From Thermoflexales bacterium (GTDB taxonomy: Bacteria; Chloroflexota; Anaerolineae; Fen-1058), in NCBI GenBank assembly GCA_034434835.1, contig DAOTXX010000104.1, forward strand, positions 1 through 54,315: a stretch of DNA of 54,315 nt, read 5' to 3'. Position numbers and translations under genes: made by a program. The notes beneath the pieces were generated by a model, which was not told where the DNA came from, did no database searches, and was given only the letters and a program-made list of their open reading frames with translations. How positions within the stretch are numbered: position 1 is the stretch's first letter; each line of letters opens with the position of its first letter. Below are positions 10,030 to 35,918 of the stretch, piece by piece.

Positions 10030-12750
10030 TTATCCTAATGCGCGGAGTTGTTCATCGAGCCTGGCCCGTTTTTGCACCAGGTCAACCAGCTTGTCGCGTT
10101 CTTTTTGCACGACAGGCGCAGGCGCTCGGGTCGCAAAATCGCTCGCCAACAATTTTTCGCTGCGTTCGATTTGCGCTTCCACTTGGTTCAACTCTTGGGT
10201 CAGTCGAGCCTTCTCCGCTTCCACATCCACCATCTGCGCGAACGGCAGATAGACCGTCACCGCGCCCAGCACGAGCGAGAGCGCCTTTTTGGGCGGCGCA
10301 GCGAGTTTATCGAGCACGACGATGCCGCGCTCGTCGAGCCGCGCCAGCATCGCCAGTTCGGCGCGATGGCTCTCGAACAGGTGCGCGTGTTCGCCCGCGA
10401 CGATGAGCGCGGCGGTTTTCTTTTCCGGCTTGACGTTGAACTCGGCGCGAGCATTGCGCACGGCGCGGATCGCGTCCATGAGCAGATTCATTTGCCGCTC
10501 GGCGGCTGGGTCCGTCGGGCCGGGCTGCGGCCACGGCGCGATGATGAGCGCTTCGGGCCATTCGGCCTGCTGCGGCTTGGTTGGCTTGTCGCCCAGTGCG
10601 GCCTGGCGCAGGTGCTGCCACACCTCTTCGGTCACGAACGGCATGTAGGGATGCAAGAGCCGCATCGCCTGGTCGAGCACGTAAATCAGTGTGCACTGCG
10701 CGCCGGCCCGGGCTTCCTCGTCGCCGCTGTTCAATGCGAGCTTGGACATCTCGATATACCAGTCGCAGAACTCGTTCCAGATGAACTCATAGATCAAGCG
10801 TCCGGCTTCGCCGAACTGGTATTCCTCGATCAGCCGGGTTGCATCGGCAATCGTCCGGTTGAGCCGCGACATGATCCAGCGCTGCGCGAGTTCACCGCCA
10901 TTGGCAGCGGGCGCTTCGGCTTCGGTTTCCATGCGCCAGCATGGGCCGCCCGCCCGCCATACGTCTGGTTTGACGTTCGACACTACAAATCGTGCCGCGT
11001 TCCAAATCTTGTTGGCAAAGTTGCGATTGGCCTCGATGCGCTTGACTTCGAGGTTCATGTCGTTGCCGGGCGTGGACCCCGTGAGCAGCGTGAAGCGCAA
11101 GGCGTCGGTGCCGTACTGGTTCATCACGTCCAGCGGGTCAATCGTATTCCCCAACGACTTGGACATCTTGCGACCTTCGGCGTCGCGGATCAGGCCGTGC
11201 AAATAGATGGTGGTGAACGGCGGCTTGCCGGTGAACTCGAGGCCGAACATGATCATCCGCGCTACCCAAAAGAACAGGATGTCATAGCCGGTTTCCATCA
11301 CCGTCGTCGGGTAAAACTCTTTCATGTCGGGAGTCTCGTCGGGCCAACCAAGCGTGGAGAACGGCCACAGCGCCGAACTGAACCACGTGTCGAGCACGTC
11401 TGGGTCTTGGACGATGTCGTGCCGCCCGCATTTTTCGCATGAGCTGGGGTCGAGCCGCGCGGCCCACTCGTGCCCGCAGTCCTTGCATGTCCACACCGGG
11501 ATGCGATGTCCCCACCACAACTGGCGGCTGATGCACCAATCGCGGATGTGTTCCGGGTCGAGCCAGTTGTAGTAAATCTTGGTGAACCGCTCCGGGATGA
11601 TCTTGATGTGGCCGTCTTGTACGGCGCGCATGGCCTTTTCGGCCAGCGGCCTGATTTTGATATACCACTGCGTCGAGACCATTGGTTCGATGATCTCGCC
11701 GCCGCGCTGCGAGCGCGGGATCTGCGTCGTGTACTTTTCGGTCTTGATCGTCAGCCCGGCCGCTTCCATGTCGGCCCACAGCTTTTCGCGGCACTCGAAG
11801 CGGTCCATGCCGGCGTATGGCCCGGCCGCCTCGCTCATCGTGCCATCGGGATTGAGCACGTTGACGATGGGCAGGCCGTGCCGCTGGCCGATCTCGTAAT
11901 CGGCCGGATCGTGACCGGGCGTGATCTTCAAAGCGCCGGTGCCAAATTCCATCGAGACGTAGGTATCGTGAATCACCGGGATGGGCCGGTTGAGGATCGG
12001 CACCAGGCACGTCTCGCCAATCAGATGGCGGTATCGCTCGTCGTCGGGATGCACCGCCACGGCGGTATCGCCCAAGATCGTCTCCGGGCGCACGGTCGCC
12101 ACGGGAATGTATTGCTCCGGCTTGCCCGCGATGGGGTACTTGAAATAGTACAGCGCGACTTGTTCTTCGCTGTATTCTACTTCGAGGTCGGACACGGCGG
12201 TCTTGAGGCCGGGCGACCAGTTCACCAGGTACGTGCCGCGATAGATGAGGCCCTTTTCGTACAGGCGTACGAACGCTTCGCGCACGGCGCGCGAAAGCCC
12301 CTCGTCCATCGTGAACCGCTCGCGCTCCCAGTCGCAGCTTGCGCCCAGCCGCCTGTGCTGCTGCGTGATGTACGAGCCGTACTTTTCTTTCCATTCCCAC
12401 GTGCGGCGCAAGAATTCTTCGCGCCCGATCTCCTCGCGGCTGGTGCCTTCGGCGTGCAGCATCCTTTCGACCTGCAACTGCGTGGCAATGCCGGCGTGAT
12501 CCGAGCCGGGCACCCACAGCGTCTTGTCTCCGCGCATTCGATGGTAACGGATCAGCATGTCTTCGATGGATGCGGTGATGGCGTGACCCATGTGCAGCCC
12601 GCCGGTCACGTTGGGCGGCGGCATCGAGATGACAAATCGTGCGGCGTGCTTGCCGCCGCGCGGCTTGAAGTAACCGCGCTTTTCCCACCAGGCGTAGAGA
12701 CGTTCTTCAGTGGATTGAAAGTCATAGGTTTTGGGCATGTCTTTGGTCAT
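10030..12750 (-). CDS. valS: valine--tRNA ligase
   Basis: 906 aa; PPPNVTGGLHMGHA (HIGH), KMSKSLGN, WCISRQLWWGHRIP, C-terminal coiled coil typical of ValS; RBS CAGGAGA. Confidence 0.9.
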   Translation of the reverse strand: MTKDMPKTYDFQSTEERLYAWWEKRGYFKPRGGKHAARFVISMPPPNVTGGLHMGHAITASIEDMLIRYHRMRGDKTLWVPGSDHAGIATQLQVERMLHAEGTSREEIGREEFLRRTWEWKEKYGSYITQQHRRLGASCDWERERFTMDEGLSRAVREAFVRLYEKGLIYRGTYLVNWSPGLKTAVSDLEVEYSEEQVALYYFKYPIAGKPEQYIPVATVRPETILGDTAVAVHPDDERYRHLIGETCLVPILNRPIPVIHDTYVSMEFGTGALKITPGHDPADYEIGQRHGLPIVNVLNPDGTMSEAAGPYAGMDRFECREKLWADMEAAGLTIKTEKYTTQIPRSQRGGEIIEPMVSTQWYIKIRPLAEKAMRAVQDGHIKIIPERFTKIYYNWLDPEHIRDWCISRQLWWGHRIPVWTCKDCGHEWAARLDPSSCEKCGRHDIVQDPDVLDTWFSSALWPFSTLGWPDETPDMKEFYPTTVMETGYDILFFWVARMIMFGLEFTGKPPFTTIYLHGLIRDAEGRKMSKSLGNTIDPLDVMNQYGTDALRFTLLTGSTPGNDMNLEVKRIEANRNFANKIWNAARFVVSNVKPDVWRAGGPCWRMETEAEAPAANGGELAQRWIMSRLNRTIADATRLIEEYQFGEAGRLIYEFIWNEFCDWYIEMSKLALNSGDEEARAGAQCTLIYVLDQAMRLLHPYMPFVTEEVWQHLRQAALGDKPTKPQQAEWPEALIIAPWPQPGPTDPAAERQMNLLMDAIRAVRNARAEFNVKPEKKTAALIVAGEHAHLFESHRAELAMLARLDERGIVVLDKLAAPPKKALSLVLGAVTVYLPFAQMVDVEAEKARLTQELNQVEAQIERSEKLLASDFATRAPAPVVQKERDKLVDLVQKRARLDEQLRALG

Positions 12751-12821
12751 GGATGGTCTCCTGAGTTTGCCAAATCATCATATTTCTGTTGGCGATTTCG
12801 ATGGAAGATGGTTCTGCTGCT

Positions 12822-12914
12822 GTCAACGAATATCAAACGAATAAACGAATGATGGTCACATCTCTCTGTTAGCGATTCGTTTATTCGTTGCGCCGAAGGC
12901 GATTCGTTGACAGA
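12822..12914. promoter_or_regulatory. ~90-bp palindromic element upstream of valS built from AACGAAT repeats
   Basis: CTGTCAACGAAT...AAACGAATAAACGAAT // ATTCGTTTATTCGTT...ATTCGTTGACAG; perfect 12-bp outer inverted repeat; no T-box sequence present. Confidence 0.4.
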
Positions 12915-12956
12915 TTCCCGCTGAACAGTTACACCCGCGCTCCGCTTCGCGTGAAT

Positions 12957-13267
12957 CCGGCTAGCCCCGTCACGGGGCGCTGCTGTGTAGCGCGGCGAAT
13001 TCATCGCCGCGCGATCACGCGCCTCAAAGAACACTTCCCACAGCTGTGGTTGCTCGTCAGTTGCGCTCGCGCGGGCTGCCCGCGCTACGATGCTGCGCCG
13101 GATAAATCCGGCTAGCCCCGTCACGGGGCGCTGCTCTGTAGCGCAGAATTCATCGCCGCGCGATCACGCGCCTCAAAGAACACTTCCCACAGCTATGGTT
13201 GCTCGTCGGTTGCGCTCGCGCGGGCATGAACTGCCCGCGCTACGATGCTGCGCCGGATAAATCCGGC
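12957..13267. repeat. REP-like array (two tandem ~150-bp units) flanking RAYT
   Basis: tandem duplication of unit containing hairpins CCCCGTCACGGGG, GCGCGGGCTGCCCGCGC, CCGGATAAATCCGG; third diverged copy at 13855-13997. Confidence 0.8.
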
Positions 13268-13762
13268 TTATGCGCTTATCGCATCCAACTCGCGCCGCCA
13301 TTCATCTTCCTCAAGCCAGTAACTTGCGCTCGATTCATGCGCGAACTTGACGCCGATGCCGTCTGTGCGCTCCAAAATGGAAATGGTCGTGCCTTGCGCG
13401 TGATGTTCTTTTTGATGTTCGACGTAAGCAACATAGTTGGGCAAACGCTTGCTGTCGAAAGAGAAGACGCCGTATTCTTCTTGCCAAAAGAAGGGAGCAT
13501 TGCCCTGCCCCAATTTATTGAACTTGGTGGACGCGACTGCTTTGATCTGCCCGATAAATTTGGCGACTGCGATGGTAGGCGCGATGGCGGCGACCATGTG
13601 AACGTGATCGGCCGTCCCATTCAATGCAAATATAGTTGCGCCAAGCCCAATGGCCTTGCTTCGCAGAAATCCATAGATAACGGATTCAACCTCTGGCGTG
13701 AGCAGGGGTAATCTGTCTTTAGTTGACCAGACGATGTGGTAAAAGAGTCGCCAGTAGGGCAT
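13268..13762 (-). CDS. tnpA: IS200-like / REP-associated tyrosine transposase (RAYT)
   Basis: 164 aa MPYWRLFYHIVWSTKDRLPLL..., HVHMV (HuH) motif; flanked both sides by REP-like hairpin repeats. Confidence 0.8.
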   Translation of the reverse strand: MPYWRLFYHIVWSTKDRLPLLTPEVESVIYGFLRSKAIGLGATIFALNGTADHVHMVAAIAPTIAVAKFIGQIKAVASTKFNKLGQGNAPFFWQEEYGVFSFDSKRLPNYVAYVEHQKEHHAQGTTISILERTDGIGVKFAHESSASYWLEEDEWRRELDAISA

Positions 13763-13854
13763 TGTTTAACCTTTCCGCGTAGATTGATTACTGTGTTGGA
13801 TCAATCCGATTGGTCAGGCCGCCCGCGCTGCCGATCCGCGCCAGATTGCAAAGC

Positions 13855-13997
13855 ATCCGGTTAGCCCCATTCATGGGGCGCTGCTCTGTAGCGCAGCGAA
13901 TTCATCGCCGCGCGATCCGGCATGTCCAAGAACGCTTCCCACGCCAGTGGCGACCCGGCAATCGTATCCGCGCGGGTATGAAATGCGCCCGATGCCC
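13855..13997. repeat. diverged REP-like unit on other side of RAYT
   Basis: ~75% identical to units at 12957-13267 (GGTTAGCCCCATTCATGGGGCGCTGCTCTGTAGCGCAGCGAATTCATCGCCGCGCGATC...). Confidence 0.7.
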
Positions 13998-14337: not shown

Positions 14338-15411
14338 TCATCTCGCCGGTTGCACGTCGCTGACGCCGCCCAGTGCATTGACCTTGAACGTCCACCGACT
14401 GCCTGGGGTGAATCGGGCAAACTCGGAGGCGGTGGACGGGGAAAAGGTGTACTGGGTGTCGTTGGCGATCAGAATCACTCGATATTTTTCTTCTCGCTCG
14501 CCTTCGCGCTGATTTGAACGGAGATTCGGTTCGGGCCAGCGGGGATTTGTATCGCTGCCATTGGCAATGGCCCGATTTACCACCTGCCACTCTGTGGCCG
14601 TGTACTTGCACCAATTATCGTAGACACGATACTGGCAATCCTGCACGACCTTGCCTTTGCCGGTGCCCTGGTCAATAACGTATGGCGTGCCGCATACTTT
14701 TTCTGCGCCGGGCGCGGGCTGATCCTGGGTCGAGCGGACCTTGCGTGTGCACATGCCTTTATCTGCGCCGGATGGAATCTGATTCTCCCAAGTCTCGCGT
14801 GTCACAGGCCGCTGTTCCATGATCTCGATGGTGCGTTCCCAGGCAATAGATTGAACGACGCCGGATACCTCTGTGGTGCGCATGGTCAACGCGGCAAAGA
14901 CGATGCCGCAGATGCACAATAGGATCAAAGCGACCGCGCCGATGACCATGGCGGCTCGATTCGGTTGAGCCGGCGCCGAAGGGCGTGGCGGCGCGGGAGC
15001 TGGCCGTTTGATCAAGTCGCCGCCGCACTTTTTGCAGCGTGGAGCATGGGGCAGATTCGGTTCACCGCAGTAAGGGCAGGGCTGTTCGGCGACCGGCCCG
15101 GTCTGCAAGCTGCCTAGAATCTGGCCGGCCGAACGCGCAGCGGCCCCGGCGAGCGCAGCGCCGCACTGCGAACAGGTGAGGGCGTCGGCCGGATTGCGCG
15201 TCCCGCAGAAGGGGCAATGCACGTCCGGGCCAGGCTGAGCAGCGACGTCGGCTGCCGCGATCAGTTCTTGTTGCTGTGGTAACTCGAATTGATCTTGCGC
15301 ATCCATCGCCGCGCCACACCCGGCGCAGGTTTTGTATGTCCCGGCGTTCTTGGTGCCACAGCGCTTGCACGTCCATTCCAATTCGACATAGCCCAGAGTT
15401 TCCCGAGTCAT
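14338..15411 (-). CDS. zinc-ribbon domain membrane protein
   Basis: ATG 15411 with AAGGAG RBS; three CxxC...CxxC zinc-ribbon units, one TM helix (MVIGAVALILLCICGIVFAAL), extracytoplasmic C-terminal domain. Confidence 0.5.
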   Translation of the reverse strand: MTRETLGYVELEWTCKRCGTKNAGTYKTCAGCGAAMDAQDQFELPQQQELIAAADVAAQPGPDVHCPFCGTRNPADALTCSQCGAALAGAAARSAGQILGSLQTGPVAEQPCPYCGEPNLPHAPRCKKCGGDLIKRPAPAPPRPSAPAQPNRAAMVIGAVALILLCICGIVFAALTMRTTEVSGVVQSIAWERTIEIMEQRPVTRETWENQIPSGADKGMCTRKVRSTQDQPAPGAEKVCGTPYVIDQGTGKGKVVQDCQYRVYDNWCKYTATEWQVVNRAIANGSDTNPRWPEPNLRSNQREGEREEKYRVILIANDTQYTFSPSTASEFARFTPGSRWTFKVNALGGVSDVQPAR

Positions 15412-15421
15412 CTTACTCCTT

Positions 15422-17944
15422 TCAGGTCTCGTCTGCTCGAGAGCCACTGGCGATTGCGCACTCGATTTGGATGACGAGCGAGCTTGCGTCGGCCTGCTCG
15501 CTAATCTCTACCTTGTCCGTGCGCGTGATGCTCATTATATCAAAGATGCTGGCTTTGAGCATTTGAGCTAACCTGGCGTCACGTGTGGCGATCTGCAATC
15601 GCTCGATCTTGGCGCTGAGCGCCAGACTGTGCTCGGTCTTGAAGCGGCGCACGGCTGTGGCGATCTCGATCAGCCGCTCGCCAACCGATTCGGCTCCATC
15701 GTCCTCCAGTGATTTGTCCGGCGTAGGCCAACGGGAAAGATGGATGGATTGAATGGTAGGGGCGACCCCCGCTGTTGCTCTGCTGTGGGCAGGCGCAAGG
15801 CCTGCCCCTACGGCAGGCGCGAACAGATGACGATAAATCTCCTCGGTCACGTGAGGCAGGATGGGTGCAAACAGTTTCAAGATGGTCAGGAATACGTGAT
15901 GCAACGCCCAGCGTGCGCCCTCTGATTCTTGTGGTGTACCTTCATACAGGCGCAGCTTTGCCATCTCCAGATAGTTGTCGGCCAGGTCTTTCCAAAAGAA
16001 TGTTTCCATCTCGCTCTTGGCGGTGGCGTACTCGTAATCGCGGAACAGGTTGGTCACGCGCCGAATGAGTCGCTGCGTCCGACTCAGAATCCAGCGGTCG
16101 GCAGGTGATAAATCTGGAATGCCGGCTTCAGCCGGCTTACCGGCTAAAGCCGGTGTTCCAGCTAGGAATCGCTGGCTGAACTGTGCCACGTTCCACAGCT
16201 TGGTCACGAGCTTGGCCCCGGCCTGCACCTTTTCTTCGCTGATGTAGGCATCTTTACCAAAGCCGGTGCTGGCGGCCCAATAGCGCACGGCATCCGCCGA
16301 ATATTTCTCAATCATCGCCATCGGGGCGATTGGCCCACCGCCTCGGCTCTTGCTGATTTTGCCTGCCCCTTCCGGCGCCAGCCCCCAACCCGAGATCGCC
16401 ACGTCTTTCCACGGCAATGCGTCAAAGTGGTGATGCGATTTGGCGATCGTGTAAAACGCCCACGTCCGAATGATCTCGTGCGCCTGAGGTCGAAGCGAGA
16501 ATGGAAACACTTGCTTGTACAACGCAGGATCATTGAGCCATTGTCCCACAATCTGCGGCGAAAGCGACGACGTGGCCCACGTGTCCATCACGTCCTGCTC
16601 AGGCGCAAATGACGTGCTTCCACATTTGCAAGGTTTGGCCGGCTTGTTCTCGAACGGGTCAACCGGCAGTTGCGCTTCGTCAGCCAGGTTGACCTCGCCG
16701 CAGGCCGTGCAATACCACACCGGAAACGCCACGCCAAAGTAACGCTGCCGCGAGATGCACCAGTCCCACTTGAGTCCCTCGATCCAATCTCGATAGCGCG
16801 CTTGCATATGAGGCGGGTGCCACGTCATCTGGTTCCCTGCTGCGAGCAGTTCGCGCTTGAAATCGAGCACGCGGATGAACCACTGCCGCGTGACAATGTG
16901 CTCGACCGGCGTGTCGCAACGCTCGTGCACGCGCACCGACTGTGGGGTAGGGCGCTGGGCAAGTAACAGACCGTGTTGATCCATCGCCTCGACAATCTGT
17001 TTCCGCGCCTCGGTCGTGGAGAGGCCAGCGAAATCCCCTGCGACTTGCGTCATGCGGCCTGTTTTGTCAATCGCTTCGACGAGCGGCAGGTGATGTGTGT
17101 ACCACCACTGCACGTCGGTCACGTCGCCGAATGTGCAGCACATCACCACGCCCGTACCTTTTTCCGGATCGGTGGCTCTGTCCTCCAGGATACTCACCTT
17201 TTGACCAAACAGCGGCACGATTATCTGCTGGCCCACGAGCGATTTGAAGCGCCGGTCGTCTGGATGCACAAACATGGCCACACACGCAGGCAGCAGTTCG
17301 GGGCGCGTCGTGGCGATGGGCACGGTCTCGCCACTTGCGAGTTTGAAGGCGAGCGTGTAGAACACTGTCTCGCGTTCCAGGTCGTTCAGTTCCGCTTCGG
17401 CAATCGCCGTGCGACATTCGGGGCACCAGATCGCCGGGGCCTTTTGGCGATAGGCCAACCTCTTGCGATATAGGTCAATGAACGACAGTTGCGCCGTGCG
17501 GCGCGAGAGCGCGTCAATCGTGCGATAGGTGTAGCACCAGTCAATCGAAAGCCCCAGCCGTTGCCAGAGTGCCTGGTAGTCCTTTTCCGCCTCGACGCTC
17601 ACCTCAAGGCATTTTTCGATGAACGCCTGCCGTCCCATGTCGGCCGCGCGGATGCCCAGCCGCTTTTCGATCAGTCGCTCGGTGGGCAGGCCGTTATCGT
17701 CATAGCCCATCGGATAAAACACGTTGTAGCCGTTCATCCGCCAAAAGCGCGCCATGAAATCTGTCTGGCTGTAGGAATAGACATGGCCCAAGTGCAGATG
17801 ACCCGAGACCGTCGGCGGCGGCGTGTCAATCGAATAGACCGGTCCATCGCGCTGCGGATCGAAATGATAAATGCCGACTTCTTGCCACAAGGTTTGAAGT
17901 TGCGGTTCGGCTGTGCCAGGTTGATAACATTTTGGCAAAGGCAT
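15422..17944 (-). CDS. class Ia aminoacyl-tRNA ligase, ValS-like paralog (T-box regulated)
   Basis: 840 aa; PPPTVSGHLHLGH (HIGH-like), KISKSRGG (KMSKS-like), WCISRQRYFG; N-terminus LPKxYxP like ValS but GYDDNGLPTE resembles Leu/IleS; lacks ValS C-terminal coiled coil; exact specificity unresolved. Confidence 0.7.
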   Translation of the reverse strand: MPLPKCYQPGTAEPQLQTLWQEVGIYHFDPQRDGPVYSIDTPPPTVSGHLHLGHVYSYSQTDFMARFWRMNGYNVFYPMGYDDNGLPTERLIEKRLGIRAADMGRQAFIEKCLEVSVEAEKDYQALWQRLGLSIDWCYTYRTIDALSRRTAQLSFIDLYRKRLAYRQKAPAIWCPECRTAIAEAELNDLERETVFYTLAFKLASGETVPIATTRPELLPACVAMFVHPDDRRFKSLVGQQIIVPLFGQKVSILEDRATDPEKGTGVVMCCTFGDVTDVQWWYTHHLPLVEAIDKTGRMTQVAGDFAGLSTTEARKQIVEAMDQHGLLLAQRPTPQSVRVHERCDTPVEHIVTRQWFIRVLDFKRELLAAGNQMTWHPPHMQARYRDWIEGLKWDWCISRQRYFGVAFPVWYCTACGEVNLADEAQLPVDPFENKPAKPCKCGSTSFAPEQDVMDTWATSSLSPQIVGQWLNDPALYKQVFPFSLRPQAHEIIRTWAFYTIAKSHHHFDALPWKDVAISGWGLAPEGAGKISKSRGGGPIAPMAMIEKYSADAVRYWAASTGFGKDAYISEEKVQAGAKLVTKLWNVAQFSQRFLAGTPALAGKPAEAGIPDLSPADRWILSRTQRLIRRVTNLFRDYEYATAKSEMETFFWKDLADNYLEMAKLRLYEGTPQESEGARWALHHVFLTILKLFAPILPHVTEEIYRHLFAPAVGAGLAPAHSRATAGVAPTIQSIHLSRWPTPDKSLEDDGAESVGERLIEIATAVRRFKTEHSLALSAKIERLQIATRDARLAQMLKASIFDIMSITRTDKVEISEQADASSLVIQIECAIASGSRADET

Positions 17945-18264
17945 ATCTTTTTCTCGTACTGCATATTGCGTACTGCGCGCTTACGGAACACGCAACACGC
18001 AATAGAAACAAAATCCCCTTCCGCTCAAGGGCGAAAGGGGAAACCTTCCGTGGTACCACCTTGTTTTGCTGTACATTACTGCGCCAGCACTCTCATCATC
18101 CCGACCATCATCAGGGTATGGCGATAACGGGCCAGCCCGGTTCCGGCTCCCAAGCGACCTTCAGCCGCACTTGCTGCGAGAGGCTTGCACCCGGTGGCCT
18201 CTCTTCGCTATCAGCAGGCTGCGGCCTACTCCTCTTGTTCACCGCCGTTTGCTTTGGCTTGTTG
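17945..18264 (-). ncRNA. T-box riboswitch leader
   Basis: minus strand has GUGA/AGAG/AGUA stem-I elements, T-box sequence GGUGGUACCACGG (consensus GGUGGNACCGCGG, UGGU can pair tRNA ACCA with A73), followed by terminator CCCCUUUCGC-loop-GCGGAAGGGG + AUUUUGUUU. Confidence 0.75.
18006..18040 (-). terminator. T-box intrinsic terminator hairpin
   Basis: 10-bp stem (one G-U) with U-rich tail on minus strand, immediately 3' of T-box sequence. Confidence 0.7.
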
Positions 18265-18270
18265 GTTACG

Positions 18271-18299
18271 ATTCTAGCACGAACCGTCATAAGCGGCAA
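18271..18299 (-). promoter_or_regulatory. sigma70-like promoter of T-box/aaRS transcript
   Basis: minus strand TTGCCG-17 nt-TAGAAT. Confidence 0.45.
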
Positions 18300-35846: not shown

Positions 35847-35918
35847 GGATTGTAGATTGTAGATTGCTGATTGCAGATTGCGCAATCATCAATCAACTAT
35901 CTACAATCAGCAATCATC
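35847..35918. repeat. palindromic heptanucleotide array (GATTGNA x5 + CAATCNN x5)
   Basis: gattgta gattgta gattgct gattgca gattgcg | caatcat caatcaa ctatcta caatcag caatcat; forms ~35-bp hairpin. Confidence 0.85.

Follow-up and report, generated by a model that had tools for sequence, protein, structure and literature searches.

T-box leaders are known on valS and other class Ia aminoacyl-tRNA synthetase genes in Firmicutes, Chloroflexi, and Deinococcus-Thermus (PMC2494555; TBDB, bioRxiv 10.1101/2020.06.17.157016). They comprise a Stem I with a specifier codon followed by a purine, an AG bulge, and a distal loop, then an F-box, an antiterminator with a UGGN bulge, and a terminator, followed by a U-tract, that competes with the antiterminator, upstream of the gene for the cognate synthetase. 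Here we analyzed a stretch of 54,315 nucleotides (nt) from a Thermoflexales bacterium (contig DAOTXX010000104.1), hereafter the window, in which a leader with these same features precedes one of two genes for valyl-tRNA synthetase (ValRS), the leader and both genes lying on the minus strand. The gene behind the leader, valS-A, encodes an archaeal-type enzyme of 840 amino acids (aa), and valS-B, farther downstream, encodes a bacterial-type enzyme of 906 aa. Taking the explanation as a whole, we think it likely that the leader is a valine T-box acting on valS-A, that it heads a locus occurring in three states (valS-A alone, both genes, or valS-B alone), that valS-B is expressed separately in the window, and that the two genes are an old xenologous pair. 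The system differs from known T-boxes in that the window clade has lost Stem II and its leader scores 13 bits under the Rfam gathering score, and in that the gene behind the leader alternates in Chloroflexota between an archaeal-type and a bacterial-type ValRS.

Pairs of dissimilar synthetases have been described for isoleucine and proline. IleRS1 and IleRS2 coexist in Bacillaceae, both copies with T-box elements (bioRxiv 10.1101/2022.02.09.479832; PMC4861432), and a P-type and an E-type ProRS coexist in Bacillus thuringiensis (PMC11229370). Like the ValRS pair, these bring together deeply divergent (∼30% identity) bacterial-like and archaeal- or eukaryote-like enzymes in one genome, involve T-box elements, and have either type as the sole enzyme in other lineages. 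The ValRS pair differs in its amino acid, in its linkage in a fixed order with a single T-box, in having no known inhibitor or resistance phenotype, and in spanning many Anaerolineae lineages rather than one family. The duplicate synthetases tyrS/tyrZ and thrS/thrZ of Bacillus subtilis are under T-box control, with one copy induced when charging by the other fails; unlike the ValRS genes, they are unlinked, have a T-box each, and are both of bacterial type. A further parallel is xenologous gene displacement in situ, a concept reportedly introduced by Omelchenko et al. in 2003; the term is used in PMC1274311. As in such displacement, the flanks and the regulator of the valS locus stay while the gene is swapped for a distant homologue, whereas the stage with two xenologs persists here instead of being transient, both copies apparently being held by purifying selection. 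ValRS is among the most stably single-copy synthetases (PMC5388404), and our literature searches turned up no account of two coexisting ValRS in Chloroflexi; a linked pair of unrelated ValRS recurring in many Anaerolineae appears to be undescribed. The conserved two-gene module with a riboswitch tied to the locus is a new instance of known phenomena.

The T-box leader of valS-A

The original prediction, made from the bare letters of the window, had placed a T-box riboswitch before the 840-aa gene. Every sequence element that it named was found at its place on the minus strand, and RF00230, the Rfam T-box model, matched positions 18251–18024 with 80.2 bits, spanning all 219 model positions (E-value 1.2e-17 in a search of 801 nt, 8e-16 in the whole window). 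The curated gathering score of this model is 93 bits, and the leader was reported only in E-value mode; at E ≤ 0.1, it was the sole T-box of the 54-kb window. The leader, its elements, and the two synthetase genes are as follows.

18271–18299, minus strand: promoter-like site TTGCCG-17-TAGAAT (9/12 matches, with TG preceding the −10)
18004–18251, minus strand: predicted Val T-box leader, a transcriptional attenuator (RF00230 80.2 bits, covariation, homologous leaders)
18156–18158, minus strand: predicted specifier codon GUC (Val), then the purine G at 18155 (model register and conservation)
18048–18060, minus strand: T-box sequence GGUGGUACCACGG, with the UGGU bulge at 18058–18055 (invariant in 18/18 leaders)
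18004–18041, minus strand: predicted intrinsic terminator, 18041–18014, with U-tract 18013–18004 (UUUUGUUU) (stem, folding energy, covariation)
15422–17944, minus strand: valS-A, archaeal-type ValRS, 840 aa (NF009687, motifs, ratio of nonsynonymous to synonymous substitution rates (dN/dS))
10030–12750, minus strand: valS-B, bacterial-type ValRS, 906 aa, with C-terminal coiled-coil tRNA arm (NF004349, PF10458)

Stem I (∼18246–18145) holds an S-turn AGUA (18230–18227), the AG bulge AGCGA (18209–18205), and GGGUGCAAG in the distal loop. The Stem IIA/F-box CCGGGCUGGCCCGUUA comes next at 18140–18125, and Stem III, antiterminator, and terminator follow in turn; upstream, the −10 region (TACAAT or TAGAAT) is conserved in the related loci L083, L085, and L084. 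The terminator stem has 11 bp, 7 of them G-C, and the antiterminator's 3′ arm overlaps with its 5′ arm, so that the two folds are mutually exclusive. The segment that includes the terminator has a folding energy of −26.2 kcal/mol vs. −11.6 kcal/mol for the antiterminator-only segment; the terminator is much the stabler fold, as expected where tRNA is required to keep the antiterminator in place. The minimum free energy of the whole leader had a z-score of −1.8.

Comparison of homologous leaders bore on the same structure. In an alignment of 18 leaders and 372 columns (A4), RNAalifold predicted Stem I, Stem IIA, and the terminator, with compensatory changes in 20 of 35 pairs. When the antiterminator conformation was imposed, 92.4% of cells were paired vs. 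82.8% in shuffled alignments, and compensatory (double) changes occurred in 19 of 33 pairs, a level reached in none of 500 shuffles; sliding the 3′ partners by 1–3 columns lowered pairing to 36–51%. The antiterminator helices were 100% and 95% paired across the 18 leaders, G-C to A-U switches included, and the Stem I helices had 4–6 compensatory pairs apiece.

About 24 RF00230 consensus positions, those of Stem II, are deleted in the window leader, which explains its score below the gathering threshold. The deletion is common, motif for motif, to L083 and L085, the closest relatives recovered with long flanks, whose proteins are 72–78% identical to those of the window, and this retention indicates a conserved clade variant rather than decay. 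Natural T-boxes without Stem II, such as that of glyQS, are functional. We therefore read the leader as a predicted Val-specific, transcription-terminating T-box riboswitch with all canonical elements except Stem II, and, as a riboswitch, as an ordinary family member of the Stem II-less kind. Low Rfam scores extend beyond this clade: five of the seven Chloroflexota valS loci searched with Rfam gave no match at the gathering threshold, though a leader profile (nhmmer, built from valS-A leaders and run over the fetched loci) detects them. The T-boxes that Rfam missed and that profile and covariation support are those of L009, L016, L018, L087, L090, and the window, so that annotation pipelines using this cut-off would under-call T-boxes in the phylum. 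Rfam matches of the window to mir-2574, mir-4875, and mir-34 fall on palindromes and were set aside as spurious.

The leader's amino acid specificity was decided by its relatives. In the RF00230 register, the specifier loop reads GAA-G-GUC-G at 18162–18155. More than 25 Chloroflexota leaders have GAA, then G, U, A, C, or nothing, then GUC-G, and two from Ktedonobacteraceae have GUG followed by A or G. Given that only GUC or GUG is conserved and that the position before it is variable or missing, the codon is that of valine; the original prediction had offered this reading as uncertain, noting that others exist. A GGU (Gly) reading, which the window sequence alone allows, was excluded, as the G before GUC is not conserved. 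The UGGU bulge fits an A73 discriminator, as had been proposed, and bacterial tRNA-Gly has a mismatched U73. By analogy with the established T-box mechanism, uncharged tRNA-Val(GAC) would pair with GUC and, via its free ACCA end, with UGGU; this would stabilize the antiterminator and let RNA polymerase read into valS-A and the gene that follows it, which encodes a double-zinc-ribbon (DZR) protein. Charged tRNA-Val could not pair in this way, and the terminator would form.

The valS locus in Chloroflexota

We examined 80 loci related to valS-A, plus several from an exact protein look-up, and the counts below refer to the matches listed. Homologues of valS-A at 64–80% identity were abundant, and the named ones came from Chloroflexota (Anaerolineae, Ktedonobacteria, and Ardenticatenaceae). 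In the 32 Chloroflexota loci (L001–L032), the GGUGGUACC motif lay upstream in 26; it was also seen in several Clostridia with this type of ValRS. The leader profile found a T-box in 28 of the 32, with exactly one valS T-box per locus, always before valS-A and never between valS-A and valS-B. A T-box followed by an archaeal-type valS is thus a usual layout in Chloroflexota rather than a peculiarity of the genome studied here. The original prediction had contrasted a second, paralogous synthetase with a canonical valS: there are two ValRS genes, and the idea of an odd second copy fails on how common valS-A with its T-box is in the phylum.

Searching all loci with both proteins (tblastn) recovered the order T-box, valS-A, valS-B on one strand in at least 13 loci (the window, L083, L085, L001, L002, L004, L007, L009, L013, L016, L017, L018, and L022), so that what might have been a one-off duplication is a conserved tandem in many Anaerolineae. 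The distance between the genes ranges from a 4-nt overlap (L009) through 80 nt (L016) and 186 nt (L018) to 0.8–3.3 kb elsewhere, and the short spacers are unstructured. In L009, L016, and L018, one T-box most likely governs both genes. Between clades carrying the tandem, ValRS-B proteins are only ∼50–63% identical, which indicates that the pairing is old. One copy was left out as evidence: valS-B of L085 (13606–14808) ends at about residue 396, differing from its sister assembly L086 (96.8% identical), in which it continues, and the truncation reflects either rearrangement at strain level or an assembly error. The 80-nt spacer of L016 (12458–12537) is made of short CCCTAA/CCCTGA-like repeats.

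The other two states are defined by gene content at the locus itself. A T-box with valS-A and no valS-B was found in at least nine loci with 5–10 kb of downstream flank (L008, L011, L014, L019, L020, L023, L024, L027, and L031). Conversely, the T-box stands directly before valS-B, with no valS-A, in L087–L093 and L171, whose ValRS-B is 57–75% identical to that of the window; most of the loci L094–L170 were generic bacterial valS loci and uninformative. The leaders of valS-B alone scored 98–166 bits against the valS-A leader profile, compared with 41 bits for an unrelated T-box of the same phylum, and two of them exceeded the Rfam gathering cut-off (L088, 96.6 bits; L089, 94.4 bits). The original prediction was right that the 906-aa gene of the window has no T-box, and this is no property of the gene as such, since where valS-B comes first or alone it carries the orthologous Val T-box.

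The flanks tie these states together. L083, with both genes, and L088 and L089, with valS-B only, share upstream genes for Glycos_transf_4, UDPG dehydrogenase, Pro_isomerase, and VTT_dom proteins. L009 (T-box, DUF498, valS-A, valS-B) is collinear with L090 (T-box, DUF498, valS-B), and the difference is exactly the valS-A open reading frame (ORF). From the shared flanks and this collinearity it follows that the tandem and the valS-B-only arrangement occupy the same chromosomal locus. In a neighbor-joining tree, leaders from the three arrangements were intermixed, and those nearest to the window clade came from two valS-B-only loci, L091 and L087. These comparisons show that one orthologous T-box heads a valS locus in three states. 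They fit in situ displacement of a gene by a xenolog, but with a two-gene stage that lasts long, in which the pair would be an old, selectively maintained product of xenologous acquisition at one locus, resolved differently among lineages by losing valS-A or valS-B. In L009 (332–690) and L090 (7495–7857), a small DUF498/Mth938-like ORF separates the first valS gene from the Val T-box, and is thus a conserved passenger of the T-box transcript in two lineages.

The two synthetases and the DNA around them

Both enzymes are ValRS by their family models. The 840-aa protein scored 1041 bits against NF009687 (PRK13208; ∼800-aa archaeal-type valine–tRNA ligase; NCBIfam cut-off 738), and 360 bits for IleS and at most 187 for LeuS, both below their cut-offs, which disposes of the fallback that it might be a divergent leucyl- or isoleucyl-tRNA synthetase. 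It carries HLGH and KISKS, which like its editing motifs ATTRPELLPACV and GTGVVMCCTFGDVTD follow the archaeal-type consensus; HLGH, KISKS, ATTRPELLPACV, and GTGxVMCCTFGDxTD are shared with ValRS from 10 archaeal loci, and the editing motifs also with other bacteria that have this type. The 906-aa protein scored 1188 bits against NF004349 (TIGR00422; cut-off 704), has the PF10458 (Val_tRNA-synt_C) coiled coil, and aligns end to end with Thermus thermophilus ValRS 1GAX (796 bits), whereas valS-A aligns with 1GAX only over residues 1–708 (328 bits) and has no closer solved structure. In valS-B, the motifs HMGH, KMSKS, RPET, and GTGALKITPGHDPAD are intact and the editing residues K270, T272, D276, and D279 (T. 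thermophilus numbering) are retained. The two proteins are 28% identical. Catalytic and editing motifs were family-typical in each and were kept in all copies of both genes at loci with the tandem, so that each has the appearance of a full ValRS able to edit.

Comparison of the window with L083 gave a dN/dS of 0.128 for valS-A and 0.135 for valS-B, pointing to purifying selection on both. The more conserved gene is valS-B (87% aa identity and dS 0.60, vs. 78% and 1.12 for valS-A). It also has the highest GC content at third codon positions (GC3, 0.80) and, after RNase PH, the second-lowest effective number of codons (ENC, 39.0) among the 29 ORFs of the window, while the ENC of valS-A is average (45.8); ENC was lower in valS-B than in valS-A in 9 of 10 genomes with both genes. 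Codon bias, a proxy for expression, and the lower dS weakly suggest that valS-B is the more highly expressed of the two.

In the window, the valS genes are 2.67 kb apart, and the DNA between them contains the following.

14338–15411, minus strand: DZR membrane protein gene, 357 aa (gene calls in L082 and L083; Pfam DZR and Zn_Ribbon_1)
13268–13762, minus strand: IS200-like Y1 transposase (RAYT-like), between the valS genes (PF01797 80.3 bits, E 1.7e-22)
12954–13268, unstranded: two tandem REP-like units of ∼150 nt each (families D1–D4, 88–98% identity)
12820–12913, unstranded: AACGAAT-repeat palindrome upstream of valS-B (hairpin z −3.8)

The DZR gene starts 11 nt past the valS-A stop, encodes a predicted membrane segment, and is confined to the window clade (its L083 version is 68% identical); it is probably co-transcribed with valS-A and would then be co-regulated by the T-box. 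Beyond it lie ∼1.6 kb without a counterpart in the closest relative: nucleotide homology to L083 covers 18249–14347 (T-box, valS-A, and DZR gene) and 12762–10035 (valS-B), with none over 14347–12762. A third, diverged REP-like copy (70–73% identical) lies on the other side of the transposase at 13817–13894, and the transposase and REP-like units together (12954–13894) look like a RAYT/REP-type element absent from L083. Non-conserved, partly mobile DNA thus appears to have pushed valS-B away from the T-box in the window lineage.

The AACGAAT palindrome, which the original prediction had correctly located before valS-B, forms a predicted hairpin of −41.4 kcal/mol. It was rejected as a regulatory leader of valS-B, as L083 has an unrelated hairpin there and the palindrome is missing from the short L016 and L018 spacers, and also as a T-box or terminator, having no T-box match and no U-tract after it. 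A third AACGAAT half-copy, GTCAACGAATgTCAAACGAATAAACGAcT, lies 4.3 kb away at 8461–8492, and the direct copies bracket a Band_7 gene and valS-B; they may mark where a mobile or recombined segment ends.

The wider neighborhood comprises genes for the DZR protein, the transposase, Band_7, WD40, radical SAM, and TPR proteins, and RNase PH. Between valS-B and RNase PH, the window has ∼7.7 kb that L083 lacks at this place (2335–9930), encoding Band_7/MVP-shoulder, WD40, and radical SAM proteins and two TPR proteins. The markedly low GC3 of the two TPR genes (0.52–0.53 vs. a mean of 0.70) suggests recent acquisition. Elsewhere, an intergenic imperfect palindrome of GATTG/CAATC-type repeats (35847–35916) matched mir-34 on two strands with 34 and 31 bits, below gathering.

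Alternative readings and the meaning of the tandem

In the reading we favor, valS-B of the window would have its own expression, probably constitutive and at a higher level, and valS-A would be the feedback-controlled copy, rising when charging of tRNA-Val falls. The original prediction had proposed a conditionally expressed paralog induced on tRNA starvation, and pairing such a copy with a constitutive one is compatible with the architecture of this genome, with weak support from codon bias. The inducible role cannot be general to the archaeal type, because other lineages have valS-A as the only valS gene after the T-box. Several observations weigh against this reading or parts of it. The Rfam search of the window leader at the gathering threshold returned no match, and Stem II, which the leader lacks, ordinarily contributes to tRNA binding. 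The A73 discriminator of tRNA-Val is taken from general knowledge, and neither the window nor any of 28 related loci yielded a tRNA-Val gene. Upstream of valS-B of the window there was no convincing promoter, and between the two genes no strong terminator, which makes read-through of the T-box transcript into valS-B possible. In an Ardenticatenia metagenome-assembled genome (L172, 7352–8001), valS-B follows a VTT_dom gene after 10 nt and has no T-box, an additional state that brings their number above three. The distance matrices of the two proteins were not significantly correlated (Mantel r 0.18, p 0.16), a result that neither supports nor refutes co-inheritance. The direction of displacement, too, can be read either way, with valS-A inserted or valS-A lost.

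We weighed the favored reading against three others, of which one deserves most attention: that housekeeping falls to the 906-aa ValRS gene alone and that the T-box gene is a backup paralog for starvation or antibiotic resistance, much as IleRS2 in Bacillaceae, where IleRS1/IleRS2 is documented as an analogous pair (bioRxiv 10.1101/2022.02.09.479832). The greater conservation and stronger codon bias of valS-B, the existence of loci with valS-B only, and the fact that in the window the T-box precedes valS-A alone would all suit it. Yet valS-A is a widespread ValRS of Chloroflexota that stands by itself behind the T-box in at least nine loci, T-box control is normal for a sole housekeeping valS and is found on valS-B where it comes first, and in three loci both genes follow one T-box; in L085, moreover, it is the bacterial-type gene that is truncated. 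As for resistance, the MupA and MupB models scored far below their cut-offs, no inhibitor biosynthetic cluster is recognizable near the valS genes of the window, and the active-site motifs are typical of their families, so that a resistance role is without evidence in the window. To our knowledge, no natural inhibitor of ValRS is matched by a resistant paralog. On balance, we regard the backup role as unlikely.

The remaining two concern the leader and the enzyme themselves. Were the leader a decayed T-box remnant, valS-A would be either constitutively terminated or read through, and the sub-threshold score, the missing Stem II, and the modest z-score of the whole leader could be taken as its marks. 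We consider this very improbable: the Stem II-less form is kept in L083 and L085, functional T-boxes of this form exist in nature, the functional motifs are invariant, the helices carry compensatory changes, terminator and antiterminator still exclude each other, and of the Chloroflexota valS T-boxes run against Rfam, most likewise score under 93 bits. That the 840-aa enzyme is instead a divergent LeuRS or IleRS, or that the T-box reads another amino acid (GGU for glycine, or a frame ambiguity between AGG and GUC), has in its favor the homology of class Ia synthetases and a window sequence that on its own permits GGU; with the model scores pointing to ValRS, a G before GUC that relatives do not conserve, and a UGGU bulge implying A73 where tRNA-Gly has U73, its likelihood is negligible. 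The reading of a Val T-box at the head of a locus shared by two xenologous synthetases accommodates these results best.

A bolder proposal goes further, namely that many Anaerolineae stably retain two xenologous ValRS as a linked module behind one Val T-box because the two are non-redundant. We put it forward tentatively, as a possibility that we do not favor. If true, a codon-optimized, fast bacterial-type workhorse beside a feedback-induced archaeal-type enzyme would be one candidate division of labor; the second enzyme might differ in editing (of Thr, aminobutyrate, or norvaline), in its preference among tRNA-Val isoacceptors, or in tolerance of inhibitors or stress. It would be the first such division of labor described for ValRS.

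The riboswitch alone adds little, being notable for its missing Stem II and its under-detection by Rfam. The locus adds more. Its states with valS-A only, both genes, and valS-B only would form a natural series for the displacement of an essential gene without loss of its regulation, and with the pair one can ask if speed, editing, or choice of tRNA sets the two types of ValRS apart. For the phylum at large, the genes called "valS" in Chloroflexota do not make up a single orthologous group, which bears on marker-gene phylogenies and on annotation.

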